From Anaerolineae bacterium (lineage in GTDB: Bacteria; Chloroflexota; Anaerolineae; Aggregatilineales; Phototrophicaceae): DNA of 64,000 nt. Below are positions 2 through 59,305 of the stretch, piece after piece; the first letter of the stretch is position 1, and every line of letters begins with the position of its first letter. The position numbers were made by a program, and so were the translations under genes. Where the stretch lies: NCBI GenBank assembly GCA_034435995.1, contig DAOTWC010000081.1, forward strand, positions 12,795 to 76,794, in the 5' to 3' direction. The notes under the pieces were generated by a model. The model ran no database searches and was not told where the DNA came from. It was given only the letters and a program-made list of their open reading frames with translations.

Positions 2-1078
2 CTCGACCGGGGCCTGCTGGACCGGCTGCCGCGCGACGCGCTGCTGCGCCAGGCGCTGCCCGCCGCGGCCGCCTGTCTGCCCGACGCGCGCGCCCTGCGC
101 GTTTACCGCGTGCATGACGATGTCGCCGTGCTGGAAGCCGCCACGGACTGGCCCGACAGCGCGCGTGTCCCGCTGGCTGGAACCGCCCTGGGCGCGGCGC
201 TCGACGCGGACGGCCCGCTGTTTGCAGCCGAAGACAGCGCCTGGGTCGTCCCCCTGACGGCCGGCGGCGTGCTGTACGGCCTGCTCAAAATCACCGCCGA
301 CGCCAACGCCGCCATCGCCGCCGAACGCGCGGCGCTGGTGGCCCTGCACCTGGCTGGGGCCGTGCGCCAGGCCGCGCTGGCGGACATCAACGCCCGCCTG
401 AGCAAAGCGGCTGACCGTCACGGCGAACAGCTCGCCCGCGTGACCGGCTACGGCCAGCGGATTCAGGCCTCGCTGGATACCGCCGCTGTGCTGGAGGCCA
501 CGCTGCAGGCCATCAGCGAGGTTGTCCCGGCTGACCGCATCGAGATCGCCCTGTTCGACGCCGCTGATGGCAAGCTGCGCACCGTCGCACTGTACACCGG
601 CGGCGAACGCTTCATCACGCTGCGCGGCGGCAGCGTCGTGCCGCTGGAGGGGACGCTGGCCGGCAGGGTGTGGAACGCGCGCGCGGGGCGCTATATCCCC
701 GACGCGCAGGCTGCGCCAGAGCTGGCGACCGGCGGCCTGCAGGGCCTGCGCGCGCTGCTGGCGCTGCCGGTTTTCTCGCGCGTGGGGGTGCTGGCCGTGG
801 CCACGCTGGGCAGCGCCCAGCCCGACGCCTACGCCCCTGCCGACATCGCCCTGGTAGAGCAGATGCTGGGCCTGCTGGCCAACGCGCTGGAGAACGCTAT
901 CGTCTACGACCGCAGCCAGCACGCCGCCCGCAACGAGGCGTTGGTCAACGTGATCTCCGAGCGCCTGCAGCAGCAGATGGATGTTCAGTCCATGTTCGAC
1001 GTCGCCCTGACCGAGCTGGGCCGGGCCATCGGCGCGCAGCGCGCGCAGGTGCGCCTGCGCCCGCCCGCCGACCAGTGA
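2..1078 (+). CDS. GAF-domain protein, 5' end lies outside the window
   Basis: Frame 2 is open from the first bases of the window, with no stop before the GTG at 110 used by the ORF track. The translation shows GAF-type elements (VVPLTAGGVLYGLLKI; LANALENAIVYDRSQ). It carries the same C-terminal tail (VNVISERL...ELGRAIGAQRAQVRLRP) as the next four genes. Stop is TGA at 1076-1078. Confidence 0.7.
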   Translation, partial: LDRGLLDRLPRDALLRQALPAAAACLPDARALRVYRVHDDVAVLEAATDWPDSARVPLAGTALGAALDADGPLFAAEDSAWVVPLTAGGVLYGLLKITADANAAIAAERAALVALHLAGAVRQAALADINARLSKAADRHGEQLARVTGYGQRIQASLDTAAVLEATLQAISEVVPADRIEIALFDAADGKLRTVALYTGGERFITLRGGSVVPLEGTLAGRVWNARAGRYIPDAQAAPELATGGLQGLRALLALPVFSRVGVLAVATLGSAQPDAYAPADIALVEQMLGLLANALENAIVYDRSQHAARNEALVNVISERLQQQMDVQSMFDVALTELGRAIGAQRAQVRLRPPADQ

Positions 1079-1088
1079 GGTGCGCCCC

Positions 1089-2786
1089 ATGAACCACCTG
1101 CGCCGCCTGCTCGACACCCTATTCCCCGTTGAACGCTACGGCCCAACCGACCGCGACCGCGCGCGCGCTGTCTACACCATCAGCGTTCTCATGCTGGCCA
1201 GCGTCACCGCCCTGGTGCTGATGGCGCTGGCCGCGCCCAACACTCCCGAGCTGCTGGGCGTCTTTGCCTCCGCGCCGCTGCTGACTGCCACGATGGCGCT
1301 GTTCTACGCCAGCCTGGTGGCTGCCGTCGTTCTCGTGCGCCGGGGGCGGCTGCGCTGGGGCGCGGCCATCGTGATCCTGCTGTGGGCCTTCACCATGCTT
1401 CTGCCCGGCGCGCTCAACGGCCTGAGCAACCTGTTTCACGGCCAGCTTGTCGCCATCACCGTGCTGCTGCCAGCGCTGCTGCTGCGGCGGGCCGGCCTGC
1501 TGCTTGGCACGGGGATAGCGGCGGCCACTGTTTTTGCTGTTTACGCTGGCAGCTCCGATCAACTGGGTTTGATCATCCCCAGCAACCTGGTCAGCATTGG
1601 TATGACGGCTGCGCTTGCCTACTCGCTGCTGCGCCTGTCGTCGCTGGGCCGCGAGGAAGGCCTCAACCAGGCGCTGGCCGAGCGCCTCAAGCTGGCCGAG
1701 CTGACCGCCGAGATCGCCCAGCGCATCTCCAGCCGCAGCGCCCTGGCCGACGTGCTCAGCGAAACGGTGGAGGACATCGTCGCCAACTACCCTGACATCT
1801 ACCACGCGCAGATTTTCCTGGTGGACAGCGTCGGTCTGCGCGCCCGGCTGGCCGCCAGCACTGGCCCAGTGGGCGGCGAACTGCTGGCGCGCGGCCACAG
1901 CCTAGAGGTAGGCAGCCGCAGCGTCATCGGCCAGGTGACCGGCCAGGGGCGCGTCGTGGTGGCCCGCGCCGGCGGGCAGGATGCCACCGTCCACCGCCGC
2001 AACGAGTACCTGCCGGAAACCCGCGTCGAGGCGGCTTTCCCGCTGCGCAGCGGCGGCCGCGTGATCGGCGCGCTGGATTTGCAGAGCAAGCTGGACGACG
2101 CCTTCCCAGAGCGCGACCTGCTGGTGTTCCAGACGCTGGCTGACCAGATCGCCATCGCCATTGACAACGCCCGCCTGTTCGAGGAAGCCCAGCGCAGCCT
2201 GGCCGAAAACCGCGCGCTGCTGGCCCAGAACGAGCGCGCGCTGCGCGATGTCGAGCGCTACGCTGCCCGCCTCGCCGGGCAGGCCTGGAGCCAGTTCCTC
2301 GACGGGCGGCCGTCTGCCGCCGGCCTCAGCCTGGACCTGGCCCGCGGCACGGCCAGCGATCAGGACGCCTGGCTGCCTGTGCTGGAGCGCGCCTTGGAAT
2401 CCGGCCAGGTGGAGCAGGAGCGCGACAACGGCCACCTGCAGGTGGCCGTGCCGCTGCGCGTGCGCGGCGCTGCGCTGGGCGCGATGGCCTTCCAGGTGCC
2501 GGGGCTGGAGGCGCTGGCGCCGGAGGACCTCGCCCTGGCGCAGACCGTCGGCGATCGGCTGGGCCTGGCGCTGGAGAACGCCCGTCTGTTCGACGAAAGC
2601 CAGCGCGCCGCCCAGCGGCAGGCCTTCATCAACGAGATCAGCGCGCAGCTTCAAACCAGCACCAACGTGGAGGCGACGCTGCGCGCGGCCGCCCACAGCC
2701 TGCGCGATGTGCTGGGCGCGGGCCGCGTGACGATCCGCCTGGGCCAACCGCCTGGCGCTGACACCAGAAAGGACGGTGGCGCATGA
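1089..2786 (+). CDS. Membrane-anchored GAF-repeat sensor protein without recognisable output domain
   Basis: ATG at 1089 has GAGG 8 nt upstream; GTG at 1080 from the ORF track is an alternative start. The N-terminal ~170 aa are strongly hydrophobic with several TM-like stretches. A full GAF follows (YHAQIFLVD...GSRSVIGQV...RVIGALDLQS...IAIAIDNARLFEE), then a half-GAF and the conserved tail. Confidence 0.8.
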   Translation: MNHLRRLLDTLFPVERYGPTDRDRARAVYTISVLMLASVTALVLMALAAPNTPELLGVFASAPLLTATMALFYASLVAAVVLVRRGRLRWGAAIVILLWAFTMLLPGALNGLSNLFHGQLVAITVLLPALLLRRAGLLLGTGIAAATVFAVYAGSSDQLGLIIPSNLVSIGMTAALAYSLLRLSSLGREEGLNQALAERLKLAELTAEIAQRISSRSALADVLSETVEDIVANYPDIYHAQIFLVDSVGLRARLAASTGPVGGELLARGHSLEVGSRSVIGQVTGQGRVVVARAGGQDATVHRRNEYLPETRVEAAFPLRSGGRVIGALDLQSKLDDAFPERDLLVFQTLADQIAIAIDNARLFEEAQRSLAENRALLAQNERALRDVERYAARLAGQAWSQFLDGRPSAAGLSLDLARGTASDQDAWLPVLERALESGQVEQERDNGHLQVAVPLRVRGAALGAMAFQVPGLEALAPEDLALAQTVGDRLGLALENARLFDESQRAAQRQAFINEISAQLQTSTNVEATLRAAAHSLRDVLGAGRVTIRLGQPPGADTRKDGGA

Positions 2787-4450
2787 TCGCCTGGCTGCGA
2801 AACCTGCTGGCACAGGTTGAAATCCCTGAAAACGATCCCCTAGCGCGGCTGCGGCAGCGCTTTCTGCAGGGCGCAGCCGGGGCAGCCGCCCTGACGGCGC
2901 TTGTCGGCATACTCGCTCAGCTGGCCGTCCGTCCCACAGCGCCCGCCATGTTATCCGGCGCTGGCGTGTTCCTGGTGGGCATCACGCTGTTGGCGCTGAC
3001 GCAGCAGCGGCGGCTGCGCATCGCCGCGCCGCTGCTCTTGGTCACGCTGATTGCCGCAACGTTCGCCGCCTCAGCCGTGCGCTACGCGTTCTTGCTCTAT
3101 CTGCTGCTTGGCACGCTGGCGCTGTTCAGCGCGGCCACCCTGCTGCCGCGTTGGGCGTTCATCCTGACCAACGCAGTCATTTTCGCGCGCGGCTTCACCC
3201 TGCTGGGCACAGCGCTGGCCAGCGTGCCGCCCGACGCGCCCGAAGCGTTTTTTATCGAAACTGTGACCAATGCTGCGCTGATTCTATCGGTTCTGCTGAT
3301 CGTAAGCGCGGTTTCCCGTTACATCGTCGAGCAGCTGCAAGGCGCAGTCCAGCAGACACAGCGCGCCGCCGACCGGCTGGCCGCCACCGCGCAGATCGCC
3401 CAGATCACGGCCGCCACGCTCGACCTGACCGAGCTGTTCAACCGCTCGGTCGAGCTGATCCGCGACTACTTCGGCTTCTACCACGTGCAGGTGTTCATGC
3501 TGGACGCGCGCGGCGAGTTCGCGGCGCTGGCCGCCAGCACCGGCGACGTCGGCCAGCAGCTCATGGCGCGCCAGCACCGGCTTCCAGTGGGGTCTACCAG
3601 CGTGATCGGGCGCGTGACCTACTTCGGCGAGCCAGTTATCGCCGCCGACACCGACCTCGACCCGCTGCATCGCCCCAACGACCTGCTGCCCGACACGCGC
3701 AGTGAAATGGCCGTGCCGATTTTCGACGGCGAGCGCGTCATCGGCGCGCTGGACGCGCAGAGCACCGTGCCGCGCGCCTTCACGCCGCTGGATGCGCAGG
3801 TGCTGCAAACACTGGCCGACCTGCTGGCAGTGGCCATCCGCAACGCGCGCCTGTTCGAGGAGAAAACGCGCGCCCTGGCCGAACAGGAGCGGCTTGTCCA
3901 GCAGGCGGACATCAACGTGCGCGAAATCCAGCGCCTGAACCAGCAGCTCACCCGCATCGGCTGGTCGCAGTTCCTGGAGCAGCGGCCGGACACCGCCGGC
4001 GTGACCCTGCGCGACGGCATCGTGCGCGCTGAGGCCGAGTGGAGCCAGCCGCTGATCGCGGCGGCCCGCACCGCGCAGCCGGTGGCCGACCGCGCTGGCG
4101 GCAGCCCCGGCTCAGTGGCTGTGCCCGTGACGCTGCGCGGCGAGGTGATCGGCGCAATCGAGGTTGAGCCAGGCAGTCTTATGCCTCCCGCCGACGTGGT
4201 CGCTGTCTTGGAGGCCGTGGCGCAGCGCCTGGCCCTCAGCCTAGACAACGCCCGCCTGTTTGAAGAAGCCAACCTGGCCACCGCCCAGGAGCAGCGCATC
4301 AACGCCATCGCCACGCAGTACCAATCGGTGAACAGCGTGGACGACCTGCTGCGCGTCACACTGACCGAGCTGAGCGAGACGCTGGGCGCGCGGCGCGGCG
4401 CGATCCGCCTGGGCAGCGTTGGCTCCACTAACGGAGACACGGCCCAATGA
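2783..4450 (+). CDS. Membrane-anchored GAF-repeat sensor protein without recognisable output domain
   Basis: ATGA start/stop overlap with the upstream gene (2783-2786). Hydrophobic N-terminus, then a GAF (YHVQVFMLD...GSTSVIGRV...RVIGALDAQS...LAVAIRNARLFEE), then WSQFL, a half-GAF and the conserved tail. Confidence 0.8.
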   Translation: MIAWLRNLLAQVEIPENDPLARLRQRFLQGAAGAAALTALVGILAQLAVRPTAPAMLSGAGVFLVGITLLALTQQRRLRIAAPLLLVTLIAATFAASAVRYAFLLYLLLGTLALFSAATLLPRWAFILTNAVIFARGFTLLGTALASVPPDAPEAFFIETVTNAALILSVLLIVSAVSRYIVEQLQGAVQQTQRAADRLAATAQIAQITAATLDLTELFNRSVELIRDYFGFYHVQVFMLDARGEFAALAASTGDVGQQLMARQHRLPVGSTSVIGRVTYFGEPVIAADTDLDPLHRPNDLLPDTRSEMAVPIFDGERVIGALDAQSTVPRAFTPLDAQVLQTLADLLAVAIRNARLFEEKTRALAEQERLVQQADINVREIQRLNQQLTRIGWSQFLEQRPDTAGVTLRDGIVRAEAEWSQPLIAAARTAQPVADRAGGSPGSVAVPVTLRGEVIGAIEVEPGSLMPPADVVAVLEAVAQRLALSLDNARLFEEANLATAQEQRINAIATQYQSVNSVDDLLRVTLTELSETLGARRGAIRLGSVGSTNGDTAQ

Positions 4451-6123
4451 ACATTGTTCGCCGCTGGACTCGGCGCATTCACGTCACCTATCCCAACCCG
4501 CTTGACCGGGGCAGTGCGCTGGCCCTGATGTGGATCAACCTGGCGGCGGGGGCCGTCTGGCTGCCGCTCGCTGTCTTTTACCTGGTGCCGCGGTTTAGCG
4601 CTGGCGCTGACCGCAGCCTGCTGGCTGCCCTGGCGATTGTTGGCACGCCGATTGCGGTGTACGCCGTCCATTCGCTGGTGCTGAACAACCGGCTGGAGTG
4701 GGCGCAGCGGCTGGCGGTGGCCGGGCTGTTGGGCGTTACGCTTGGCCCACTGATGATCAACCAAGGGCAGGAAACGCCGCTGGCGCTGCTGCTGCTGCCG
4801 GTGGCGGCCGCCGGCGTGATGCGCCGGCGGGCCGAACTGCTGCTGGTGACGCTGTTGGTGACGGCTGGCGCGGCGCTTGGCACGCTCGGCGGCCCGCTGG
4901 CCAGCCGCGCCCAGCCCGATCCAGCAGCCGTAGAGGAGCTGGCAGCGGCGCTGGCCAGCGCCTGGCTGGTCGCCCTGCTGGCCAGCGCGTTCAAAGGGCA
5001 CGAGGGCGGCGTGGTGACGGGCGCGCTGCGCGCCAGCGGGCAGACCGCTCTGCTGGGCGAGCTGAGCGACCGCCTGAACACCGCCGACGACGAAAACGCT
5101 GTGTTGGTGGCCGTCGCCGAAACGATCACCGACAAAATGCTGTACACCGCCTGCCATTTCTATCTGTTCGACGGCCAGAACCGGCTCAACCGGCACGTGC
5201 GCACCGGCATGGGCACGCGCCACGCCGTCAGCCCAGCGCGTTTTGAGGGCGAGCGCGAGAACGCCATCGGCCAGGCGCTGCACGCCCGCGAGACGGTGGT
5301 CGTCTCTGCCGCCGAGCCGCTGGCGCGGCGCAGCCACCTGCTGTCCTCGGCGCGCTGTGGGGCCGCTGTGCCGCTGCTGGCCGGCGAGCGCGTGCTGGGC
5401 GCGCTGGACGTGCAGAGCAGCCAAGCCGATCCGCCGCCGTTCGAGGGCCTGAACCTGGCCCTGCTGGAGCTGACCGCGCGCATGGCGGCGGGGGCGCTGG
5501 CGCGCGTGCGCGAGGCTGCGCTGCTGCAGCGCACACTGGCCGAGCAGGAGGACACACTGGCGGGCCTGCGCGCCGAAGTGGGCCAACTGCGCCAGCGCGC
5601 CCTGGCCGGCGGCGGCGATTGGGCCAGCTACATCCAAGGGCGCGGCCAGAGCGCGTTCGGTTTCGACCTGCGGCGCGAGGGCATGACGATCACGCCCGCC
5701 GCCGACCTGCCCGACACGCTGCGCCCCGCGCTGGCGCGCGGCGAGCCGGTGGTGCTCACCCAGGGCAGCGTGCAGGTTGTCAATGTGCCGATCCGCCTGC
5801 GCGACGAGGTGCTGGGCGCGATGGCCTTCACCCTGCCGCCCGGCCGCCAGGCGACTGAGCGCCAGATGGACACCGTGCGGGCGGTGGCCGAGCGTCTGGC
5901 GCTGGCGCTGGAAAACGTCCGGCTGATCGAGCAGAGCCAAGCCCAGGCCACCCGCGAACGGCGCGCCAGTGAGGTCTCCAACCTGCTGATCGGCCAGCAG
6001 GACGTGAACGCAGTGCTGAAGCTTGCCGCTGAGCGCTTTAATGAGGCGCTGGGCGCGGTCTACACCCACATCTATCTGGAACCGGCTGCCAGCCCGGCGC
6101 CAGACGAGGAGGCGGCCCGATGA
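4447..6123 (+). CDS. Membrane-anchored GAF-repeat protein, the divergent paralog of the array
   Basis: ATGA overlap at 4447-4450. Hydrophobic N-terminal third. Divergent GAF (CHFYLFDGQN...ERVLGALDVQSS), a half-GAF (VNVPIRLRDEVLGAMAF...LALALENVRLIEQSQ) and the conserved tail. Confidence 0.75.
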   Translation: MNIVRRWTRRIHVTYPNPLDRGSALALMWINLAAGAVWLPLAVFYLVPRFSAGADRSLLAALAIVGTPIAVYAVHSLVLNNRLEWAQRLAVAGLLGVTLGPLMINQGQETPLALLLLPVAAAGVMRRRAELLLVTLLVTAGAALGTLGGPLASRAQPDPAAVEELAAALASAWLVALLASAFKGHEGGVVTGALRASGQTALLGELSDRLNTADDENAVLVAVAETITDKMLYTACHFYLFDGQNRLNRHVRTGMGTRHAVSPARFEGERENAIGQALHARETVVVSAAEPLARRSHLLSSARCGAAVPLLAGERVLGALDVQSSQADPPPFEGLNLALLELTARMAAGALARVREAALLQRTLAEQEDTLAGLRAEVGQLRQRALAGGGDWASYIQGRGQSAFGFDLRREGMTITPAADLPDTLRPALARGEPVVLTQGSVQVVNVPIRLRDEVLGAMAFTLPPGRQATERQMDTVRAVAERLALALENVRLIEQSQAQATRERRASEVSNLLIGQQDVNAVLKLAAERFNEALGAVYTHIYLEPAASPAPDEEAAR

Positions 6124-8410
6124 CCCGTCACTGGAATATCCTGGCCTGGCCTATCTGGGCCAAGCTGCTGGCTGGATTCGTCGTTGCGGTGGTTGTGCCG
6201 GTGGTGCTGCTGCTGGTGCTGGTCGTGCGCGGCATCCGCGAAATTGACCTCGCCAACGCCGAATCGGCCGTTGCCCAGTTCGGCGCGCAGCAGGCTCAGG
6301 CGCTGGCCAGCGCGTTTGCCCTGGCCAGCAACAGCCTGAACGACTACATCCAGACGCCTACCTTCCGCTCGCTGCTGCTGGAGCTGATCCCAGCCGGGCG
6401 CGCTGGCGACGCCGTCGTTGACCCGCTCGATCAGGCGCGCCTGGTGGGCAACATGCAGGACGGCCTGCTCAACCGGTCGGCCAGCACGTTCACGCGGCTG
6501 ACCCTGCTCAACTCCAGCGGGCAGGTGATGGCGCAGGCCGCGCCGGGGCGCAGCATCGAGGTGACGATGGGCGAGAGCATGGCGCTCAGCGCGGCCTACC
6601 GCGCCGCCACGCTGGCCTACACGCGCGGCCAGACGCAGGCCGTCGTCGTGAGCGAGGAGGGCGGCCAGCCGGTGATCGAGATCGTCAACGTGCTGTTCCG
6701 CTACAACGTCGTCGAGTTCCGCCAGTTCCAACTGCCCATCGCCTACCTGGTGGCGCGGCTGAACCCGGCCTTCACCGTTTACGACAAGCTGCCGCCTGTT
6801 ACTGCGCCTGATCAGCCGCGCGCCTACCTGGTGTCGCGCGGTGGCGTGGTCATCGCCGACGGCGCGGCCCGCTCTGGCGCGACCGACCTGGCCACCTCGG
6901 AGCTGGTGCGCGCCGCGCTCGCCGGCGCGCCGCAGGTGGCGCGGGCCAGCGAAGGCACAGCCGATGAGGTAGTGCGCTACGCCGTCCTCATCGAAAACAC
7001 GCCGCTCGTTCTCATCAGCGAGCGCGCGACCAACTCCGTCGCCAGCCAGATGCACGGCTACCTGCTGACGCGCGGCTTCCCGCTGCTGATGGGCCTCACG
7101 CTGCTGGCCCTGCTGCTGGCGCTACTGTTCAACCAGTTCCTCACGCCGCCGCTGCGCCGCCTGACGCAGGCCATGCAGACCACAGGCCGCGTCAGCTTCG
7201 ACAGCCCTGTGCCCGACGTTAACCGCGGCGACGAAATCGGCGACCTGGCGCGCGCCTTTGCCGACATGCGCCGCGAAATCGCCGAGCTGGTGCACGGCCT
7301 AACGCTGAGCGTCTCCGAGCGCGAACGCGACATCAGCGCCACCCAGGACATCAGCCGCTTCGCCGCCGCTCAGCGCGATCTGCAGCACTTGATTGACCGC
7401 GTGGTTAACCTGATCGTGGATCGCTTCCCCAACATTTACCACGCCCAGATTTTCCTGCTCGACGACGAAGGCCGCTACGCTGTGCTGCGCGCCAGCACCG
7501 GCGAGGCTGGTGCACAGCTGCTGGCGCGCGGCCACCGCCTGGAGGTGGGCAGCCGCAGCGTTATCGGCCAGGTGACCAGCTTGGGGCAGACGATAGTGGC
7601 CCGCGACATCGGCGCCAGCGACATTCACCGCCGCAACGAATTCCTGCCCGACACGCGCGCCGAGCTGGCCGTCCCCCTGCGCGTCGGCAACCGCGTGATC
7701 GGCGCGCTGGACGTGCAGAGCTTCCTGCGCGACACCTTCAGCGCCGACCAGACGCGCGTGCTGCAGACCATGGCGGATCAGATCGCCATCGCCATCGAGA
7801 ACGCGCGCCTCTACCAGGAAGCGCAGCGCAGCGCCAGCGACGAGGCGCGCCGCCAGCGCGCGCTCACCCGCTACGCCTGGCGCCAGTACCTCTACGACGA
7901 GCGCGCCGCCCGCCTGGAGAGCGCAGCCGGCCGCGCGTCCAGCCTGGAAGCCCTCGACGACCTGCGCCGCGCCGCCGCCGCGCGCGGCGAGGCAGTGGTA
8001 GGCCAGCCCACGCCGCACCACACCGTCGCCTTCGCCGTGCCCATTCGCCTGCGCGGCGAGACGCTGGGCGCGGTGGCCTGGGAGGTGGCCCAGGCCGGCT
8101 TCGACCGCAACAAGGTGCTGCTGGCCCAAGAGCTGACCGACCGCCTCGCCGTCAGCCTGGAGAACGCCCGCCTGTTCACCCAGAGCCAGCGCGCTGCCGA
8201 GCGCGAGCGCTTGGTCAACGAGATCAGCGCGCGCCTGACCGGCCAAACCGACATTGACCACATCCTGCGCACTGCAGTGCGCGAGGTAGGCCAGGCGCTG
8301 CGCGCGCCGCAGGTGACTATCAGCCTGCGCCCCGCCCCCAACAACAGCCCAGAGAGCGCCAACGGCCGCTCCAACGGCCAAACGGGCGAACACACGGAGG
8401 CCAGTGACGT

Positions 8411-8414
<4 letters not shown>
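6120..8414 (+). CDS. Transmembrane sensor protein: extracytoplasmic domain + HAMP + GAF repeats, no kinase domain
   Basis: ATGA overlap at 6120-6123. TM1 is ILAWPIWAKLLAGFVVAVVVPVVLLLVLVV, followed by a ~290-aa non-hydrophobic segment and TM2 (FPLLMGLTLLALLLALLF). A HAMP-like segment follows (PPLRRLTQAMQ...GDEIGDLARAFADMRREI). Then a GAF (YHAQIFLLDDEG...GSRSVIGQV...RVIGALDVQS...IAIAIENARLYQE), a half-GAF and the conserved tail. Confidence 0.8.
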
Positions 8415-16603
<8,189 letters not shown>

Positions 16604-16613
16604 ATCTCACAAA

Positions 16614-16682
16614 CCTCGCCGCGGCCCTCTCCACTGGCGAGGGGCTTTCCCCGTGTCCGCGTGGAGAGGGTGGGCGGTGAGG
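16614..16682. repeat. REP-like nested palindromic element / possible terminator after the kinase gene
   Basis: Three nested stems. CCTCGCCGC (16614-16622) pairs with GCGGTGAGG (16674-16682) with one G-T pair. CCCTCTCCA (16625-16633) pairs with TGGAGAGGG (16662-16670). The inner stem is GGGGctttCCCC (16641-16652). It shares the TGGAGAGGG...GGTGAGG core with the element at 35633-35698. Confidence 0.45.
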
Positions 16683-16719
16683 CCGGCATGGATCGCAATT
16701 CGACAACCACGAGGACGTT

Positions 16720-18390
16720 TTGACCAGCACAGCCAAACACATCGAACTCGAATGCATCAACTGCCGCGCGCGCGTCCCGCTGGACAAGAACGTCTCCGGC
16801 TGCCCGCGCTGCGGCGAGAACATCTTAGAGGCGCGCTACGACCTCAGCGGCCTGGACCCGGCCGCCTGGATGGAGGCGCTGCGGGCGCGGCCAGTCGGCC
16901 TGTGGCGCTATCACGAAGTGCTGCCGATTTACGACACGGGGAACATCGTCTCGTTGGGCGAGGGCGGCACACCGCTGGTGAAATCGCGCGCGCTGGCCGC
17001 CAGCCTGGGCCTGAAGCACCTGTACATCAAGGACGAGCGCCAGATGCCCACCGGCAGCTTCAAGGACCGGCAGGCCACCGTCGCCATCTCCGCCCTGCGC
17101 GAGATGGGCGTGGACGAGCTGGTGGTGGCCAGCACCGGCAACGTGGCCATCGCCTACGCCGCCTACTGCGCCCGCGCCGGCATCAAGCTGTGGGCCTTCT
17201 TCCCCAGCCTGGCCCCCGCCGACAAGATGCGCGAGGCCGCGCTCTACGGCGCAGAGGTGATGAAGATCACCGGCACATACGACCAGACCAAAGAGCTGGC
17301 CGCGCGCTTCGCCCGCACCAAGGGCGTCTTTCTGGACCGGGGCATCAAGAGCGTGGCGGCTATCGAGGCGATGAAGACGATGGCCTATGAGATCGCCGAG
17401 CAGCTCGGTCACGAGCTGGAGGGCGGCAGGCGCTGGCGCGCGCCGGACTGGTTCCTGCAGGGCGTCAGCGGGGGCATGGGGCCGATCGGCGTGGGCAAGG
17501 GCTTCCGCGAGATGCTCGACTTCGGCATGGTGGACAGCATGCCGAAGATGGGCATCGTCCAGTCCGCCGGCTGCGCGCCGATGGTGGAGGCGTGGCAGCG
17601 CGGCCAGCGCATCGCCACGCCCATCGAACGGCCGGAGACGATCATCGCCACGCTGGCCACCGGCAACCCCGGCCGCGCCTACGAGCTGCTCTACGACTAT
17701 GTGCAGGCCTACGGCGGCTATTTCGTCAGCGCCAACGACCAGGAGGCCTTCAGCGCCATCCGCATCCTGGCGCGCAACGACGGCATGTCCGTTGAGCCGG
17801 CGGTGGGCGTGACGTTCGCCGGGCTGTTCAAGATGGTGCAGAAAGGCATCATCAAGCCGGACGACGTGGTGGTGGTCAACGGCTCTGGCCACACGATGCC
17901 GGTGGAAACGCAGATTCTCGATGAACAGTGGCAGCGCTCGATTGACCTGTCGGTGCGCTCAGCCGCGCCGGTGCTGCCGGAGGAGGGCCTGCTGGCGGCG
18001 CTGGAGCAGATGGACGCGCTGGTGCGGCGCGTCGTGCTGGTGGAGGACAACGCCGACGCCGCCCGCCTCATCAGCCGCATCCTGCAGGCGCGCGGCAGCT
18101 GCGACGTGCGCGTGGCCGCTAACGGCGCGGATGGCTTGGCGCTCATCCGCGAGACGCGCCCGGACCTGGTCATCACCGACCTGATGATGCCTGGCGTAGA
18201 CGGTTTCACGCTGATTGACGCCATGAAGGCCGACTCAACCATGAACCACATTCCCATCATCGTAGTGACGGCCAAGGAGCTGACCGCCAAAGAGCGCGCG
18301 CGCCTCGGTGGGCAGATCAACCTGCTGCTGCAGAAAGGCTCGTTCATTGACGAGGACTTTGTGGCCAGCTTGATCAGCGAGCTGAGCTGA
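16720..18390 (+). CDS. Threonine-synthase-like PLP enzyme with N-terminal Cys4 zinc ribbon, fused to a C-terminal response-regulator receiver domain
   Basis: TTG start with GAGGA 4 nt upstream. Zinc ribbon is CINCRARVPLDKNVSGCPRCG. The PLP-lysine motif TGSFKDRQ (~nt 17051-17074) and the fold-type II pattern STGNVAIAYAAY match the ThrC family. The last ~125 aa form an intact receiver (VVLVEDN...DLVITDLMMPGVDGF...IIVVTAKE). Confidence 0.85.
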   Translation: MTSTAKHIELECINCRARVPLDKNVSGCPRCGENILEARYDLSGLDPAAWMEALRARPVGLWRYHEVLPIYDTGNIVSLGEGGTPLVKSRALAASLGLKHLYIKDERQMPTGSFKDRQATVAISALREMGVDELVVASTGNVAIAYAAYCARAGIKLWAFFPSLAPADKMREAALYGAEVMKITGTYDQTKELAARFARTKGVFLDRGIKSVAAIEAMKTMAYEIAEQLGHELEGGRRWRAPDWFLQGVSGGMGPIGVGKGFREMLDFGMVDSMPKMGIVQSAGCAPMVEAWQRGQRIATPIERPETIIATLATGNPGRAYELLYDYVQAYGGYFVSANDQEAFSAIRILARNDGMSVEPAVGVTFAGLFKMVQKGIIKPDDVVVVNGSGHTMPVETQILDEQWQRSIDLSVRSAAPVLPEEGLLAALEQMDALVRRVVLVEDNADAARLISRILQARGSCDVRVAANGADGLALIRETRPDLVITDLMMPGVDGFTLIDAMKADSTMNHIPIIVVTAKELTAKERARLGGQINLLLQKGSFIDEDFVASLISELS

Positions 18391-18403: not shown

Positions 18404-19570
18404 GTGCGCGCCCGCGCGTCTGTTTACCTGCCAGCCTTGGCGGCGGCTGTCCTCACGCCGCTGTTCCTGGGCGTTGCGCCGGTTTTCGGCAAGCTGGCCA
18501 TCACCGCCGGCGCGGCTCCGTTCGGCGTGGCGGCGCTGCGCACGGCGGGTGCGGTGCTGCTGCTGTGGGCGGTGTACCTGGCGCTGTTCCGGCGCTTTAT
18601 TTACATCTACCCGGCCGGCTTGCTCGGCTGCGTCGTGATCGGCGTGGTGAACGGCATTGGCTCGCTGTTTTACTACGGCGGGCTGGGTCTGCTGGACGCC
18701 TCGCTGACGCAGCTGCTCAACGGCACGTACCTAGTGTTCGCTGTGCTGCTCACGCGCATTGGCGGCGAGCGCCTGGACCGCCGGATGCTGCTGCGCGTGG
18801 CGCTGGCGCTGGCCGCGCTGGTGCTGCTTACCGGCTTCGGCAGCAGACCGGTGGACTGGCTGGGCGTGGGCCTGATGCTGGGCAGCGCCATCACCTTCGC
18901 CGGCACGGTCATCCTCAGCCAGTACGTGCTGCTGGAGATGCCCGCGCCCACCATGACACTCTACTCGCTCAGCACAATGGCGGTGCTGGTGCTGATGGTG
19001 TGGCTGGCGGCGGGCGCGCCGGGGCTGGCCGCCGCCGCCGGCCCGGCGCTGACGCCGATCGCGCTGCTGGCGGTGACGACGGCGCTGTCGCGGCTGGCGA
19101 TGTACAGCGGCATCAAAATCCTGGGCGGCATGCAGACGGCTGTCCTGGCGGTGGCCGAGATCGGCGTGGCACTGGTGCTGGCCTTTCTACTGCTGGGCGA
19201 GCGCCTGACGGCAATGCAGGTGGTGGGCGTAGGGCTGCTTACGGCCAGCCTGCTGCTGGTGCGCGCCCGCGACCTGGCCTCGGCCCGCTTCAACCCCGGC
19301 GCGCTGTTGGTGCAGAACATGGCCGCCCAACAGTTCCAGTGGATCGCCTTTCACCGCGCTTTCGCCCGCGCCCCGCTGGACGCCGATGACGACGTGATGG
19401 CCAAAGTGACCACGCGCGAGATGCGCGCCATCCAGCGCATGATGGGCGTGGACACCGGCCCGCTCAATCCCTTCCCCATCGTCAACCCGACGGCGCACTA
19501 CAGCGTGGACCTGCGCGCTTTCCTGGACGAAACGCAGCCGCCAGACGACGAAAAACCGCCGTCGCCCTAG
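18404..19570 (+). CDS. EamA/DMT-superfamily transporter with ~90-aa soluble C-terminal tail
   Basis: GTG start 13 nt after the upstream stop, with GAGG upstream. About ten hydrophobic helices form two five-helix halves, typical of the drug/metabolite transporter (EamA) fold. The C-terminal tail is hydrophilic. Confidence 0.75.
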   Translation: MRARASVYLPALAAAVLTPLFLGVAPVFGKLAITAGAAPFGVAALRTAGAVLLLWAVYLALFRRFIYIYPAGLLGCVVIGVVNGIGSLFYYGGLGLLDASLTQLLNGTYLVFAVLLTRIGGERLDRRMLLRVALALAALVLLTGFGSRPVDWLGVGLMLGSAITFAGTVILSQYVLLEMPAPTMTLYSLSTMAVLVLMVWLAAGAPGLAAAAGPALTPIALLAVTTALSRLAMYSGIKILGGMQTAVLAVAEIGVALVLAFLLLGERLTAMQVVGVGLLTASLLLVRARDLASARFNPGALLVQNMAAQQFQWIAFHRAFARAPLDADDDVMAKVTTREMRAIQRMMGVDTGPLNPFPIVNPTAHYSVDLRAFLDETQPPDDEKPPSP

Positions 19571-19593: not shown

Positions 19594-20685
19594 ATGAATG
19601 CGCACGCTGCATCGCCCACCCTGATCTGTGCCGACTGCGGGCAGGCCGCCGGGCCGCTGGACTGGCACTGCGACGGCCACCCGCTGGAGATCGCCGGCGC
19701 GCCGCCGTTCGACGCCGCCGCCATTGACGCGGGCGCGTGGAGCATGTGGCGCTACGCCGCCGCGCTGCCGGTGGCGCGGCGCGTCTCGCTGGGCGAGGGC
19801 CTGACGCCGCTCGTCCCAGTGCAGGCCGGCGGGATGCGCTTTCACGCCAAGCTGGAGTACCTCAACCCGACCGGCTCGTACAAGGACCGCGGCACGGCTG
19901 CGCTGCTCAGCCACATGCTGGCGCACGGCGTGGCGGCCGTCGTCGAGGACTCATCGGGCAACGCGGGCGCATCGCTGGCGGCCTACTGCGCCGCCGCTGG
20001 CGTGCGGGCGCGGGTGTACGTCCCGGCGGGCGCGCCGGCGGGCAAGAAGCGCCTGATCGAGCGCTTTGGCGCGGCGCTGGTCGAAATCCCCGGCCCGCGC
20101 GCCGCCGCCGCTGACGCCGTGCGCCAGGCCGCCCAAAACACCCCCTACGCCAGCCACGCCTGGAGTCCCTATTTCATTGCCGGGCAGATGACGTGCGCCT
20201 GGGAAATCTGGGAGCAGTTGGGGCGGCGCGCGCCGGACGCGATCGTGTGCCCAGTGGGCTACGGCGGGCTGCTGCTGGGGCTGGCGCGCGGCTTCCGCGC
20301 CCTGCTGGACGCGGGGTTGATCGAGCGACTGCCGCGCCTGTACGCGGCCCAATCAGCCGCCTGCGACCCGCTGGTGCGCGCGTGGGAGCGCGGCGGGCCG
20401 GTGGAGGCGGTCGAGCAGGGCCAGACGGTGGCCGACGGCATCGCGGTGACGCTGCCGCAGCGCGCCGCCGAGCTGCTGGCCGCGCTGCGCGACAGCGGCG
20501 GCGGCGCGCTGCGCGTCTCTGATGAGGCGGCGCTGGCGGCCCAGGCGGCGCTGGCCCGGCGCGGTCTGCTGGTGGAGCCAACCGGCGCGGTGGGCGCAGC
20601 AGCGCTGGCGGACGCCCGGCGGCTGGCCGGCGCGAACGCGGCGTTCGTTGTGCCGCTGACCGGCAGCGGACTCAAGGCGCTGTAG
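19594..20685 (+). CDS. Threonine synthase-like PLP-dependent enzyme (short form)
   Basis: N-terminal Cys-rich segment (LICADCGQAAGPLDWHCDGH). WRY...SLGEGLTPLV. PLP-lysine motif TGSYKDRG (~nt 19870-19893). SSGNAGASLAAY. Confidence 0.8.
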   Translation: MNAHAASPTLICADCGQAAGPLDWHCDGHPLEIAGAPPFDAAAIDAGAWSMWRYAAALPVARRVSLGEGLTPLVPVQAGGMRFHAKLEYLNPTGSYKDRGTAALLSHMLAHGVAAVVEDSSGNAGASLAAYCAAAGVRARVYVPAGAPAGKKRLIERFGAALVEIPGPRAAAADAVRQAAQNTPYASHAWSPYFIAGQMTCAWEIWEQLGRRAPDAIVCPVGYGGLLLGLARGFRALLDAGLIERLPRLYAAQSAACDPLVRAWERGGPVEAVEQGQTVADGIAVTLPQRAAELLAALRDSGGGALRVSDEAALAAQAALARRGLLVEPTGAVGAAALADARRLAGANAAFVVPLTGSGLKAL

Positions 20686-26294: not shown

Positions 26295-26523
26295 TTAACG
26301 GCCGCGCATTTCGAATCTAACGCCGCCGGCGGATCTGTAAGCATCTTGCAAGGTAAGCCAGCCTAGAATTCTTACAAATTACGCAATTTCTCAATGCAGC
26401 GCTGCGGGCACTTGGCTGCTTCCGGGCGCTTGCCGCGTGATGCATATTGTCTCAACAGCGCAGCCAATCATGTCACGAACCCCACCACCACGGCAGGTGC
26501 TGGGGACAGCGGGGAGAACAAAG

Positions 26524-29500
26524 ATGGTCGGGGACAGATTAAAAGGCTTTCTTGTCGTCCTGGTGCTTCTAGCGCTGCTGGCCCCGCTGGGCCTGGGCGG
26601 CCTAACGGCACAAGCCCAGGTATTCGCGCCCACGCCGATCCTGGTAGTAGTCAACGACAGCGCGCCCTACCAGTTTGGCCGCTACCTGGGGGAAATTCTC
26701 ACGGCTGAGGGCATTACCAGCTTTGTGACGGTTCAGATCGGCGCGCTGACCGCGGCCGATCTAACGAACCGCGACCTGGTTATCGTGGCCGAGACGCCGC
26801 TGACGCCTGGCCAGGCTGCGCTCCTCACAGACTATTACAACGCCGGCGGGCGGCTGCTGGCGATGCGGCCCGACGCGCAGATCGCCGGGCTGTTCGGCCT
26901 GGGCGCTGCCGTGGGGACGCAGGAGCGCGCCTACCTGCGCATCCTTAACGGCGCAGTTGTCAACGGTGAAGCGCCCGGCCAGGGCATCACTGGCCAGACG
27001 ATTCAGTATCACGGCACGGCCACGCTGCACAACACCCTGGGCGGCGCTGTCACTGTTGCCGAGCTGTACAGCAGCGCCACCGCGCCCACCGGCTTCCCAG
27101 CAGTGGTGGCCACCAGCGATGGCCGCGCCGCCGCCTTCACCTACGATCTAGCGCGCAGCGTTGTGCTGATGCGCCAAGGCAACCCAGCCAACGCCAACGT
27201 GGACGTTGACGGCGACGGCGTCTTCCGCACGCGCGACCTGTATCTGAGCGCCGACGGCAACCACTGGGTGGACCGCACCCGCCTGCCCATCGTGCAGGCT
27301 GACGAGCAGCAGCGCCTGTTCGCGCGGCTGGTGCGCCAGGCCGTCGAGCAGGTGCGCCCGCTGCCGCGCCTGTGGTATTTCCCCGGCACAGCCCGCACCC
27401 TGCTTATCGCCACCAGCGACTCGCACGCCAACCCGGCGAGCTACCACGTCGAGCTGCAGAACGCGGTAGCTGATTACGGCGGCACGCTCACAACCTATCT
27501 CTCGATTGGCGCGCCGGACAACGCAACGATTCAAAGCTGGCGGGCGCAGGGGCACGAGTTCGGCATGCACCCGTATGTCTACCGCGCTGATCCGTTCCCG
27601 CCGTTCAACGTAGAAAACATTGTAGAGGGGTACTACGTCGCCAACTACTGGTTCGAGAACACGTATACCAGCCCGAAATCGCGCACGGTGCGCGCGCACG
27701 ATATCGGCTGGCTGGGCTGGACCGACGCCGCTGAGCTGGGGCTGCAGTACAACATCAACCTCAACCTAGACCTGTTCACTGTTGGCCGCTGGCTGCAGCT
27801 CCCTGATGGGAGCTGGCCGCACGGCTACATGAACGGCAGCGGCCAGCCGATGCGCATGGTGCGCGCCGACGGCGTGATTCTGAATTATTACCAGCAGGCG
27901 ATGCCGCTGATTGACATCCAGCTTCTGTGCCAGCTTGCATACGAGGGCCTCAACAACACGACTGCCATGGCCGTCTCGCGCGAGCTGATTGACAACAGCC
28001 AGGCCGGCGGCTATTCCGCCATTGGGGCGTTCTTCCAGGTGGACTGTGTTCAATATGGCACCACGCCCTGGGTGCGCGACACGCTGGCCTACGCCCAGAG
28101 CGTGGGCGCGCCGATCTGGAACGCCGACCGCTTCCTGGCGTTCACCGAGACGCGCTACGACAGCGAATACACCGACATCGTCTGGAACGGGGCGACCAGC
28201 ACGCTCACGTTCAACTTGATCGCGCCCGCCAGCGGTTTCGACCTGAGCACGATCATACCAGCCAGCTACAACGGCAGCGGTTTGTCGTCGGTGCTGGTGG
28301 ACGGCAGTCCTGTGGCGTTCAGCGTGCAGCCGATCAAGGGCCGGAACGAGGCTTTTGTTACCGTTCAGGCAGGCAGCCGCAGCTTTGTGGCCGTTTACGA
28401 CGGCCCGGTGAGCACACCGACGCCAACCTGGACGCCGTCGGCCACGCCCACCAACACCCCAACCCCCACCCCGACAGCGACAGAAGGCCCGTCGCCAACG
28501 CCGACTGACACGCCGACCAACACCCCGACTCCTTCGCCAACGCCGGCGCCGCTGCCTGGGACGTACACACAGACGCTGCAGGTGAACGCGGGCAGCGACG
28601 ACGTCAACGAAGACGGCGCTGACCTGGAGGTGAACAACGCCACGATCTGGGTGGGCAGCGGCGAGAGCGCCAGCGCCAGCTACCTGGGGCTGCGGTTTAA
28701 CAACGTGCCAGCCCCGGCCGGCGCGACGATTGACAGCGCCTACCTGCAGTTCTACTCGCCCACCGGCGGCTGGACGGTCGTTGCCGCGGAGATCGCGGCG
28801 GAAGCCGTTGACAGCAGCGTCACGTTCACGCTGGCCAACCGGCCGTCGCAGCGGCCGCTGACCGCCGCGCGCGTGCAGCACAACTCGAACGCGCAGTGGC
28901 TGGCGGGCAATTGGTACAACTTCGACGAAATGCGCACCGTGGTGCAGGAAGTCGTTGACCGGCCCGGCTGGCAGGTTGGCAACAGCCTGTCCATCATCCT
29001 GCGCGGCACAGCCGGCGCGTGGGCGCGCAAGTTCGCGGCGGCCTTCGAGAGCAGCCCGGTTAACGCGGCGCGGCTGGTGATCACCTACACTATCCCCGGC
29101 CCGACGGCCACGCCAACCGACCTGCCGACCAATACCCCGACTCCAACGCCAACGCTGACGCCGACCGACGGCCCATCGCCGACGTCAACCGACACGCCAA
29201 GCGTTCCGACCAACACGCCCACGCCGACGCCCACGCCGACGCCGGAGTCGCTGACGACGCTGTTCGGGCACAACGGGCGGTTCTTCCACGGGAACATGTT
29301 CAACGTGACGGTGACGAACCCGCTGGAGATCACCAGCTTCGACGTGAACATTGGGGCGGGGAACACGACGGTGAGCGTGTACTACCGGATTGGCGGCTAC
29401 GCGGGGGTGGAGGCGAACCCGGCGGCGTGGACGCTGATGGGGTCGGCGGCGGTGGTGGGCGCTGGCCCGAACAACCGGACGGCTTTAGCAGTGAGCAGCC

Positions 29501-30399
29501 CGGTGCTGCAGCCGGGGACGTACGGGTTCTACGTGACGGTGGACCCGGCGGGGCCGGTGGACATGTACTACACGTCGGGGAGCGGGACGTTTGCCAACGC
29601 CGACCTGGCGATCACGACGGGGATCGGCGTGGGCGGGCTGTTCGGCGACCCGGCGGCGTGCGCGGCGCGGAACTTCAGCAACAACCCGTGCATCTTCCTG
29701 GATCGGACGTGGAACGGGACGATCTACTACCGGACGATCGCGCCGACGGCGACGCCGACGGCCACAGCCACTGCTACGCCGACTGATACACCAACAAACA
29801 CGCCGACGCCGACGGCCACGGCCACTGACGTCCCAACCAACACACCGATCCCGACCGAGACGCCGACTGATACGCCAACAAACACGCCAACGCCGACAGC
29901 CACCGACATTCCGACCGAGACGCCGACGGCCACAGCCACCGCTACGCCGACTGATACACCAACAAACACGCCGACGCCGACGGCCACGGCCACCGACGTC
30001 CCGACCAACACACCGATCCCGACCGAGACGCCGACGGCCACAGCCACCGCTACGCCGACTAATACGCCAACAAACACGCCGACGCCGACACCAACGAACA
30101 CGCCGGCCCCCAACAGAGCGCCCTATGTGATCCCGAATCAAACGACAGTGACGGCGGTCAACGGCCAGATGGTCACTAACACCGGCCAGGTGATTGACCT
30201 TGACGGCGACTTTGTGACGCTGACGGCCTCGGTGGGCACAGTCGTTAACAACGGCAACGGCACTTGGACGTGGACGTTCACGCCGGCCAACGGCCCGGCT
30301 GACAGCCAGACGGTGATCATCACCGGCAGCGACGGGCGCGGCGGCATCGGCCAGGGGCTGTTCTCGCTGACCGTCGTCTGGCCGACGCCGACGCCGTAA
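26524..30399 (+). CDS. Large secreted multidomain protein with Thr/Pro-rich linkers and C-terminal cadherin/Ig-like domain
   Basis: ATG at 26524 has GGGGAG 8 nt upstream, and the ORF-track start at 26437 is less likely. Signal/anchor sequence is [28 protein letters not shown]. Globular segments are separated by PTPT/TPTN low-complexity linkers at about nt 28400-28560, 29095-29250 and 29740-30110. The terminal ~90 aa look like a cadherin-like beta domain ([18 protein letters not shown]...). Confidence 0.8.
29761..30090 (+). repeat. Near-identical 105-nt direct repeats inside the linker-coding region
   Basis: Copy 1 (29761-29865) and copy 2 (29929-30033) differ at about 3 positions. A partial third copy starts at 30037. 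A 63-nt related segment separates copies 1 and 2. The repeats encode [36 protein letters not shown]. Confidence 0.85.
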
Positions 30400-42017: not shown

Positions 42018-42461
42018 ATGCCTAACCCCAAATCGCCGCAGCCGGAGGCCCAGCCAGCGGGCGCGCCAGTGACATCTGTTAAAGTGCTGGTGGTGGACGA
42101 CGAAGAGTTAACACGCACACTGCTGGGGCAGGTGCTGCGCCGAGTTCAGGTGGACCGCATGGCGGTGTTCTACGCCGAGGACGGCGAGGAAGCGCTGCGC
42201 ATCGCCCAAGCTGAACGCCCTGATCTGATCCTGCTCGACCTGCTGCTGCCGAAGATGGACGGCTACGAGGTGTGCCGCCGCCTGCAGGCGCTGCCGGATT
42301 ACCATCCGCACATCATTATGCTGACGGCTCGCGGCCAGGCCAACGACCGCGACGCGGCCCGCGCCGCAGGCGTGGATCGCTTCATGACCAAGCCGTTTAA
42401 TCCAACGCGGCTGATCGCCGACCTGAACGCGCTGTGGGCCGGCCCCGGCGGCGGCCCTTGA
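42018..42461 (+). CDS. Single-domain response regulator (CheY-like receiver)
   Basis: VLVVDDEE...DLILLDLLLPKMDGYEV...IIMLTARG...KPF, with no output domain. Confidence 0.85.
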   Translation: MPNPKSPQPEAQPAGAPVTSVKVLVVDDEELTRTLLGQVLRRVQVDRMAVFYAEDGEEALRIAQAERPDLILLDLLLPKMDGYEVCRRLQALPDYHPHIIMLTARGQANDRDAARAAGVDRFMTKPFNPTRLIADLNALWAGPGGGP

Positions 42462-43886: not shown

Positions 43887-44052
43887 CGGCTGGTATCTCT
43901 CCGGTCAGGGTGGGTGTCTCAAACAGCGCGTAGTGTACCCTAAAAGCGGCGCGCGCTCTAGATTCGACGCGCCAGGGCGCGGGTGGTTTTCGCCTTTAGC
44001 GCAGCGGTGTTATGATACGCTAAGAGCCAGCGCACAGCGGGAAGCCAGACCG

Positions 44053-59184: not shown

Positions 59185-59305
59185 CGTACATTACGCTCCG
59201 TGTATACGCACGCCTAATCATACCGCAGACTTACGCGGGGCACAGCGCCGCACGGTATACTTGAATCGAGAAAAGCTGGATAAAGCACACATGGAGGCAA
59301 GCGGT

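Follow-up and report, generated by a model that had tools for sequence, protein, structure and literature searches.

The first 16.6 kb of a 64,000-nucleotide (nt) window from Anaerolineae bacterium contig DAOTWC010000081.1 (the window being the whole stretch of DNA analysed, to which coordinates refer unless they carry the name of another locus, such as L001) holds six plus-strand open reading frames (ORFs), g1–g6 (2..16603), which are the core of a conserved signalling cluster of 10–11 genes in Anaerolineae (Chloroflexota). Its order is two receivers (REC), g1–g6, a threonine synthase (ThrC)-like enzyme fused to a receiver (ThrC-receiver), in most lineages a REC-HisKA-HATPase protein, and an EamA transporter. 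The cluster is real, ancient and strictly conserved, and apart from those of the kinase it has three receivers, of which the ThrC-like enzyme carries one. A functional link among its genes is strongly supported. Concerning how the products work together, g1–g5 may be co-sensors that converge on the hybrid histidine kinase g6, which would in turn control the receiver-fused enzyme; for this reading we consider the balance to be about level, and it is one in which we infer, rather than observe, the physical association of the proteins, the direction of the signal, the phosphotransfer partners and the chemistry of the enzyme. The six genes are as follows.

g1: 2..1078, plus strand; 5′ end cut by the window edge; soluble kinase-less protein, 374 residues in full, with a degenerate GAF, a GAF and a C-terminal junction module
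g2: 1089..2786 (alternative GTG start at 1080), plus strand; six-helix membrane domain, GAF-A (residues 209–368), 38-residue helix, reduced GAF-B, junction stub
g3: 2783..4450, plus strand; membrane helices (residues 19–146), helix into the cytoplasm (154–211), GAF-A (205–362); in the C-terminal part a 65-residue helix (335–399), an alpha/beta GAF-B (408–461), helices 469–515 and 519–534, and a disordered tail
g4: 4447..6123, plus strand; architecture of the g2/g3 type, with a divergent GAF-A that has lost the TRxE motif
g5: 6120..8414, plus strand; transmembrane (TM) helix (residues 18–36), dCache-like periplasmic domain (37–318), second TM helix (319–337), HAMP (344–387), and at the cytoplasmic end GAF-A (411–569), 24-residue helix, GAF-B, stub
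g6: 8411..16603, plus strand; 2730-residue hybrid histidine kinase with TM helix, dCache-like domain, TM helix, ten GAF-like modules, PAS, HisKA, HATPase and two receivers

Conservation of gene order and gene structure

When a single genome from each of 185,579 species was scanned, 368 matching stretches came up, of which the best 80 loci were examined; each ORF in them was labelled after the reference protein that it matched best. Nearly all of these loci lie in metagenome-assembled genomes labelled Anaerolineae or Chloroflexota, two being labelled 'bacterium' and one Bacteroidetes; named carriers belong to Aggregatilineales and Phototrophicaceae and come from reactor, groundwater and other environmental metagenomes. 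The full order REC–REC–g1–g2–g3–g4–g5–g6 is found in 46 of the 80 loci, the remaining 34 hold an uninterrupted part of this eight-gene order that is cut by contig ends, and none deviates from it. A preliminary description of the stretch, made from the sequence alone, had named conservation of the gene order in relatives as a check, and the outcome is strongly favourable, with the order kept in 80 of 80 species-level genomes and in agreement with four further genomic contexts. At least 635 homologues of g3 exist, and all named ones belong to Chloroflexota/Anaerolineae. Because the system is present in most of the assemblies examined, it is probably important for the physiology of these organisms.

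Conservation extends to the identity of the individual copies. In six other genomes, each of g1–g5 finds its best match in the gene at the same position, at 32–74% identity and usually with some two times the score obtained with any of the other paralogues; it follows that the genes were duplicated before the clade arose and that no copy has since been lost.

At the level of the DNA, the preliminary description had reported six same-strand genes joined by four ATGA overlaps and one 10-nt gap, and both coordinates and sequence agree with it: start and stop codons overlap as ATGA at 2783, 4447, 6120 and 8411, and 10 nt separate the g1 stop (ending at 1078) from the g2 ATG (1089), which is preceded by GAGG at a distance of 8 nt. 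Throughout the region a Shine-Dalgarno-like GGAG, GAGG or AAGGA lies 8–14 nt 5′ of every start, and the G+C content at third codon positions is 0.85–0.90 in the six frames, in a window of ~70% G+C overall. Among the other genomes, overlaps of 4 or 1 nt occur at 40 of 77 g2/g3 junctions, 58 of 75 g3/g4 junctions and 50 of 69 g4/g5 junctions, counts that are approximate as the choice of start codon favours short distances; the g5/g6 and receiver/g1 junctions are looser than the others. That the genes form one unit is in keeping with their tight same-strand packing and with a scan in which promoter-like and terminator-like sites do not rise above chance level, its counts being in themselves uninformative. 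The conserved overlaps, together with the lack of terminator-like sites above chance, make g1–g6 a candidate single operon with translational coupling. Two details of the earlier account required adjustment. Gene g1 is indeed 5′-truncated, although the missing part amounts to 15 codons, which were read upstream of the window in L001, and hydropathy gives no membrane helices in the full-length product; and the unit spanning 2–16603 does comprise these six genes, with the cluster continuing on both sides of it.

The hybrid kinase g6

A domain search of g6 bore out the description of the last protein as the sole one with HisKA/HATPase and two receivers, placed after about ten GAF-like modules and a PAS. 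Its parts are arranged in the following order.

g6 TM1, dCache-like extracytoplasmic domain and TM2: 8474..9478, plus strand; residues 22–356
g6 sensor array: 9692..14986, plus strand; GAF1 (A-type, 428–583), reduced GAF2 (~600–690), GAF3–6, PAS (1383–1503), then in the second half GAF7–8, GAF9 (A-type, 1860–2018) and GAF10 (2030–2192)
g6 kinase core: 15023..15709, plus strand; HisKA (2205–2272) and HATPase_c (2318–2433)
g6 receivers: 15860..16507, plus strand; acceptor Asp in both, with a His in place of the conserved Lys in REC1

Pfam recognizes nine GAF stretches, HisKA, HATPase_c and two receivers, besides a weak PAS and a weak dCache_1, and the sequence shows ten GAF-terminal helix motifs. 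The kinase core looks intact: HisKA (PF00512) scores 69.6 bits against a cut-off of 26.9, with a readable SHELRTP H-box, and HATPase_c (PF02518) scores 90.1 bits against a cut-off of 26.4, with N, G1, F and G2 boxes reading NLVSNAAKFT, DTGIGI, FEAF and GGTGLGL, respectively. The two Response_reg stretches total 122.8 bits. No NCBIfam model reaches its cut-off, the best partial matches being BarA, HrmK and TorS.

The extracytoplasmic domain of g6 is homologous to that of g5 (profile–profile probability 96%, E 4e-9). With dCache_1 (PF02743), the g6 domain of the window scores 29.8 bits, below the cut-off of 45, and that of g5 gives no match; among orthologues, 11 of 20 g6 and 25 of 38 g5 proteins match at E ≤ 0.1, with a best E-value of 1.2e-12.

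Kinase-less proteins related to the sensor end of g6

GAF, GAF_2 and GAF_3 exceed the gathering cut-off in all six proteins, and neither Pfam nor NCBIfam detects an enzymatic or other known output domain in g1–g5, as had been claimed for the upstream proteins. Their composition is richer than was first described. Proteins g2–g5 are in the membrane, yet g2–g4 are more than anchored there, having a six-helix membrane domain; and instead of consisting of GAF modules alone, each of g2–g5 has one canonical GAF, a reduced GAF and just the opening helix and strand of another. The one upstream protein said to combine an extracytoplasmic domain with a HAMP is g5, where HAMP (PF00672, 38.3 bits, cut-off 25) occupies residues 344–387, directly after TM2 (319–337).

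The six-helix domains of g2, g3 and g4 are mutually homologous (hhalign, 98% and 96%, both via g4), and Pfam gives no consistent match between them and MASE, 5TMR-LYT, 7TMR-DISM, PilS 6TM or the ethylene-binding domain; among 40 orthologous N-terminal domains of the g2–g4 type, there are lone matches to MASE6, 6TM_PilS and MASE11, by one member each and at E ~1e-3 to 1e-2.

Hydropathy and an AlphaFold2 model of g3 (mean predicted local distance difference test score (pLDDT) 85) give the six membrane helices of g2–g4, the last of which runs into the first helix of GAF-A. Foldseek aligns the model to solved GAF structures with TM-scores of 0.7–0.86; the nearest solved relatives of GAF-A are fRMsr (3mmh, TM-score 0.84, 28% identity), the PtsP GAF and the cAMP-binding GAF of Lcd1, and by sequence the closest is again fRMsr (E 2e-9). 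Longer parts of the model match tandem-GAF proteins or dimers such as PDE2, PDE5 and phytochromes.

Within the cytoplasm, g2–g5 align with one another at 30–45% identity and also with g6 residues 370–742 and 1843–2223. The GAF9 of g6 is 41–48% identical to the GAF-A of g2 and g3, and the pocket motifs YH.Q[IV]F, TRxE and GALDxQS, read from the sequence, are common to g2, g3, g5 and g6 GAF9. The pockets of g1 and g4 are degenerate; in g4, column conservation of GAF-A is ~45%, and the C-terminal module is still highly conserved. All five kinase-less proteins carry the N-terminal module of the kinase, made of GAF-A, a fixed-length helix, a reduced GAF-B and a junction stub, and g5 reads, in effect, as a copy of the first ~740 residues of g6.

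In a rival reading g1–g5 are kinase-less decoys, truncated copies of the sensor end of the kinase, which would inhibit or buffer signalling either by pairing with g6 in heterodimers that are not productive or by sequestering the ligand of GAF-A, and which would set a threshold and add no inputs. The copied module, ending just inside the next GAF, the shared pocket motifs and the identical linker lengths of g5 and g6 (see below) fit such a role. Nevertheless, four membrane paralogues each kept down to ~40% identity are more than a buffer needs, the membrane domain of g2–g4 differs from that of g6 in a way that suggests distinct inputs, and g1 and g4 are conserved despite their degenerate pockets. 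We judge a decoy function to be unlikely.

A common junction module and fixed linker lengths

The C-terminal ~125 residues of g1–g5 are mutually homologous (hhalign 98.5–99.9%, and 98.5–99.6% for g1 against g2–g5) and form the best-conserved part of all five proteins, with 70–85% column conservation compared to 20–45% in the membrane domains. When a profile of this module was run against 1.84 billion representative proteins, it matched 69,672 of them, typically 10–21 times per protein. Because of this repetition, the module is taken to be the ordinary junction between consecutive GAFs: a linker flanked by the two final strands and helix of the preceding domain and by the opening helix and strand of the following one. 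The proteins g1–g5 therefore end just inside a would-be next GAF. The final strand of g3 is unfolded in the monomer model; the idea that the C-terminus is a special fold, a circularly permuted or self-complementing GAF, was dropped, as the module is a regularly repeated junction, and it might complement the GAF of a partner in trans. Among the matches to the junction profile (e.g. P0242, P0244, P0246, P0274, P0278, P0284) are many multi-GAF proteins of 1100–2100 residues whose best match lies at most ~30 residues from the C-terminus; output-less GAF proteins that end in a truncated junction may thus be widespread outside this cluster, and a part of them might be incomplete gene calls.

Ends of this kind resemble truncations, which would suit the view that the genes are debris of duplication, fragments of one larger gene, or an artefact of assembly or gene calling. 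The same boundaries, lengths and overlaps recur across 80 genomes, identical proteins are encoded on seven independent contigs, every gene has its own ribosome-binding site, membrane helices are present, and the truncated ends are themselves strongly conserved. Position-specific orthology, conserved boundaries, identical proteins on independent contigs and conserved ends effectively exclude this explanation, to which we attach next to no probability.

A second regularity concerns the helix between the two GAFs, the length of which was measured from the Arg of the NARL motif that terminates GAF-A to an invariant Trp at the start of the reduced GAF.

g2 linker: 38 residues in 46 of 46 orthologues
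g3 linker: 38 residues in 46 of 46 orthologues
g4 linker: mostly 40 residues (39 of 46 orthologues)
g5 linker: 24 residues in 46 of 46 orthologues
g6 linker: 24 residues in 63 of 63 orthologues

The two strict classes, 38 and 24, are 14 residues apart, that is, two heptads. A fixed length is as expected for a signalling helix whose register matters, and in tandem-GAF proteins the connecting helices form a parallel dimer interface or spine. The strictness of the linkers thereby implies the C-terminal junction module as the receiver of the signal and the working end of g2–g5. The equal linkers of g5 and g6, and of g2 and g3, would allow pairing in register; they may just as well be inherited and are not proof of it.

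The upstream proteins could instead be independent homodimeric sensors that have nothing in common besides the operon, and whose C-terminal module signals to the ThrC-receiver, to the single receivers or to an outside protein and not to g6. As the part that is conserved best, the module might contact a partner other than a kinase; proteins made of GAFs alone that apparently end in it occur elsewhere (on a tentative reading of the profile matches), and the g5/g6 junction is looser in other genomes. Independent sensors would, on the other hand, be expected to be gained, lost and shuffled, and g1–g5 are not: their order is invariant, and no member has been lost in 80 genomes. Moreover, the module is the same as that in g6 itself, and the neighbourhood conserves no other candidate partner. 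We regard this arrangement, too, as improbable.

A receiver-fused ThrC-like enzyme and other downstream genes

The genes 3′ of g6 may include the output of the cluster. They are listed here together with a kinase gene that is present at the same place in other loci.

ThrC-receiver: 16720..18390, plus strand; threonine-synthase-like pyridoxal phosphate (PLP) enzyme with zinc ribbon, PALP domain and C-terminal receiver (residues 436–530)
EamA-family (drug/metabolite transporter) membrane protein: 18404..19570, plus strand; conserved 3′ of the ThrC-receiver gene
second threonine-synthase-like PALP protein, without a receiver: 19594..20685, plus strand; present here and in L011, and not in all clusters
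REC-HisKA-HATPase protein, between ThrC-receiver and EamA: L011:19931-21196, L012:20682-21926, L122:11791-13053, L123:11682-12938

The ThrC-receiver gene starts with TTG, 6 nt downstream of GAGGA, and lies directly 3′ of g6 in each of the eight loci in which the 3′ end of g6 is included; another two contigs, both short, start with this gene and continue with the same downstream genes. The enzyme scores just below the cut-offs of PRK08197 (295.3 bits against 303) and TIGR00260 (161.3 against 167.1), its best relatives in the PDB are all threonine synthases (2zsj, E 1e-45; 2d1f, 1uim, 6cgq), and its PLP-lysine motif, SFKDR, is invariant among the orthologues compared. In comparison with bacterial ThrC, the product is extended at its N-terminus by a CxxC...CxxC stretch and at its C-terminus by a receiver. 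The latter matches Response_reg with 69.1 bits (residues 438–528), and D487, T517 and K539 are invariant in four orthologues; the acceptor Asp is kept in all receivers of the cluster.

A REC-HisKA-HATPase gene follows that of the ThrC-receiver in 7 of 10 downstream loci, and EamA is found in all seven loci that reach that far. No such kinase gene is present in the window or in L010, and the lineage of the window appears to have lost or moved it. A metagenome scan with the ThrC-receiver alignment recovered at least four true loci, and all four agree with the downstream pattern. The ThrC-receiver is 73–93% identical between genomes where g6 is 47–66% identical, and identity to it is 73% or higher in more than 120 cluster representatives, the named ones being called 'threonine synthase' by their sources. 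Possibly it serves these organisms as their housekeeping ThrC, brought under phospho-control. Together with EamA, it is the most likely output of the cluster.

Proposed mechanism

The preliminary description had proposed a multi-subunit sensory complex in place of independent sensors; the packing and conserved order of the genes and the lack of known output domains bear this proposal out in part, the complex itself being hypothetical. In the co-sensor reading, each protein would sense a different input, g5 and g6 through their periplasmic dCache-like domains and g2–g4 through the six-helix membrane domain, with the conserved GAF-A pocket binding a small molecule of the cytoplasm. The likeness of GAF-A to the GAFs of fRMsr and PtsP, together with the metabolic neighbour genes, offers amino-acid binding as a lead, the substrate of fRMsr being a free amino acid (PMC6211008). 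A conformational change would then pass down the fixed-length helix to the C-terminal junction module, through which g1–g5 would associate with one another and with the matching region of g6, so that periplasmic, membrane and cytoplasmic inputs could converge on a single autokinase, g6. From there, phosphoryl groups would move to the receivers of the cluster, including that of the ThrC-like enzyme, and the output would be the post-translational control of a threonine-synthase-type reaction coupled to the EamA transporter.

A more specific version, which we put forward tentatively and think doubtful as a whole, is that g1–g5 and g6 form a defined hetero-oligomeric membrane receptor held together by GAF-junction helices, and that this receptor directly controls the ThrC-type enzyme by phosphorylation, coupled to an EamA exporter. 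If true, receptor arrays would have a counterpart outside chemotaxis, one that is made of paralogues of the sensor end of the kinase and whose output is not transcription, and a two-component system would gate the synthesis and release of an amino acid or a derived signal in filamentous Anaerolineae.

Several observations weigh against co-sensing through g6 or against its proposed output. The junction module is generic, occurring in tens of thousands of multi-GAF proteins, and is therefore not a dedicated docking domain; the monomer model of g3 shows disorder over its final ~20 residues and pLDDT values of just 50–73 in the stub. The matching linker lengths of g5 and g6 may be due to plain common descent. 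Being so strongly conserved, the ThrC-receiver may be a housekeeping threonine synthase, in which case its adjacency to g6 might have another reason. Between g6 and the ThrC-receiver gene lie 116 nt (16604-16719), within which CCTCGCC (from 16614) and GGCGAGG (to 16643) make an inverted repeat that lacks a T-run and could be an RNA structure that modulates read-through. Finally, no HPt domain was found in g1–g6, in the neighbour genes or in the other scanned ORFs of the window, and one may lie elsewhere in the genome; as the cluster lacks it, there is no obvious path for phosphoryl groups to travel from the hybrid kinase to receivers on other proteins.

Upstream receivers and flanking genes

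Seven public contigs encode an identical g3 protein; one of them, 166 kb long, reaches 7.2 kb 5′ of the window (L001) and shows the beginning of the cluster.

two single-domain CheY-like receivers: L001:6306-7120, upstream of window position 1; 125 and 145 residues, overlapping genes that precede g1

Both receivers keep the acceptor Asp, the Thr and the Lys, and the pair occupies the same position in every locus long enough to show it. It is preceded by a 215-nt AT-rich spacer (L001:6091-6305) with a perfect TATAAT at 6231-6236, ~70 nt 5′ of the first receiver gene; this spacer probably holds the promoter for the entire cluster. In three distant genomes, a cyclophilin (Pro_isomerase) gene lies divergently upstream on the minus strand (L007:3277-3765, L008:4383-4877, L009:4095-4589); in the window lineage and L010, this place is taken by a PfkB kinase gene.

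Further from the cluster, the window contains a 1352-residue ORF (26341-30396, plus strand) with coding-like third-position G+C and no Pfam match at E ≤ 0.001; a bacterial/archaeo-eukaryotic release-factor-like family 10 protein (baeRF; 59114-60385, plus strand); and a weak receiver-like tblastn match (42084-42431, plus strand; 35% identity over ~107-121 residues), where no large ORF was called. Two TIR_2-domain proteins are encoded near the cluster, at 43861-44967 (plus strand) and at L001:3718-4905 (minus strand). One has a weak ThsB-like match; the other is an FHA-FHA-TIR protein that adjoins an N6_N4 methylase with a RAMA domain, and both genes may be defence-related.

Comparison with known systems

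A full-text literature search, to which most subscription journals are out of reach, returned no published description of the cluster, of Anaerolineae/Chloroflexi GAF operons, of output-less membrane GAF proteins or of a ThrC-receiver fusion. The parts themselves, GAF, HAMP, dCache, HisKA kinase and receivers, are familiar, and for their arrangement there are only analogies.

The kinase is closest to multi-GAF/PAS hybrid phosphorelays of the BarA/TorS/ArcB type, in which an intact HisKA/HATPase core is likewise followed by receivers and accompanied by single-domain receivers. Unlike in these systems, no HPt was found in the cluster, the kinase has ten GAF-like modules, and five kinase-less paralogues of its sensor end are conserved beside it. 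Multikinase networks are comparable to the arrangement by analogy only.

In chemoreceptor arrays, many methyl-accepting chemotaxis proteins (MCPs) without enzymatic output feed one CheA through CheW. The combination of output-less TM receptors, including ones with dCache-like domains and HAMP, with one kinase and CheY-like receivers recalls the present cluster, and again this is an analogy only: a domain search of the cluster and its flanks gave no MCP signalling domain, CheW, CheA, CheR or CheB, and coupling would use GAF junction helices rather than a hairpin tip.

The ethylene receptors ETR1, ERS1, ETR2, EIN4 and ERS2 combine a membrane domain and a GAF with a kinase that is active or not, and are reported to form heteromers through their GAF domains. 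As is proposed here, paralogous membrane-GAF receptors, some without kinase function, act together with kinase-bearing members. The differences are that the membrane domain of g2–g4 has six helices instead of the three-helix ethylene-binding domain, that the kinase domain is wholly absent in g1–g5, and that all the genes lie in what is probably one bacterial operon.

Accessory proteins of three-component systems (LiaF–LiaS, VraT–VraS, YycH/YycI–WalK) resemble g2–g5 in being co-encoded, non-enzymatic membrane proteins, and modulate a cognate kinase. They are unrelated in sequence to that kinase, in contrast to the five paralogues of the kinase's sensor module described here.

The GAF–long helix–GAF geometry of g3 is that of the tandem-GAF proteins PDE2/5/6 and CyaB1/2 and of phytochromes. 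Alignments of g3 with PDE5A, PDE2A and phytochrome GAF-PHY extend over 350-450 columns at TM-scores of 0.2-0.4 and a root-mean-square deviation of ~27-37 Å, only the single-GAF matches superposing well; in addition, the g1–g5 proteins lack a catalytic output in the same chain, their second GAF is cut to ~60-90 residues, and no NKFDE motif or bilin-binding Cys is visible. With the GAFs of fRMsr and PtsP, GAF-A shares R.P.G..V.G, SRSE..VP and IG.LD..S; a reductase of the fRMsr type was rejected for GAF-A, the three fRMsr cysteine positions not being Cys in g3.

To a signalling specialist, what stands out is that five paralogues without a kinase have been strictly conserved together, along with the putative output through the ThrC-receiver. 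Chloroflexota and cyanobacteria abound in giant multi-GAF kinases and output-less GAF proteins, whose workings are barely known; a kinase kept with five separate copies of its own sensor module could show how such modules combine in trans. Likewise, a receiver on a ThrC-like enzyme, encoded beside an exporter of the amino-acid type, would be an unusual output that links two-component signalling directly to amino-acid metabolism.

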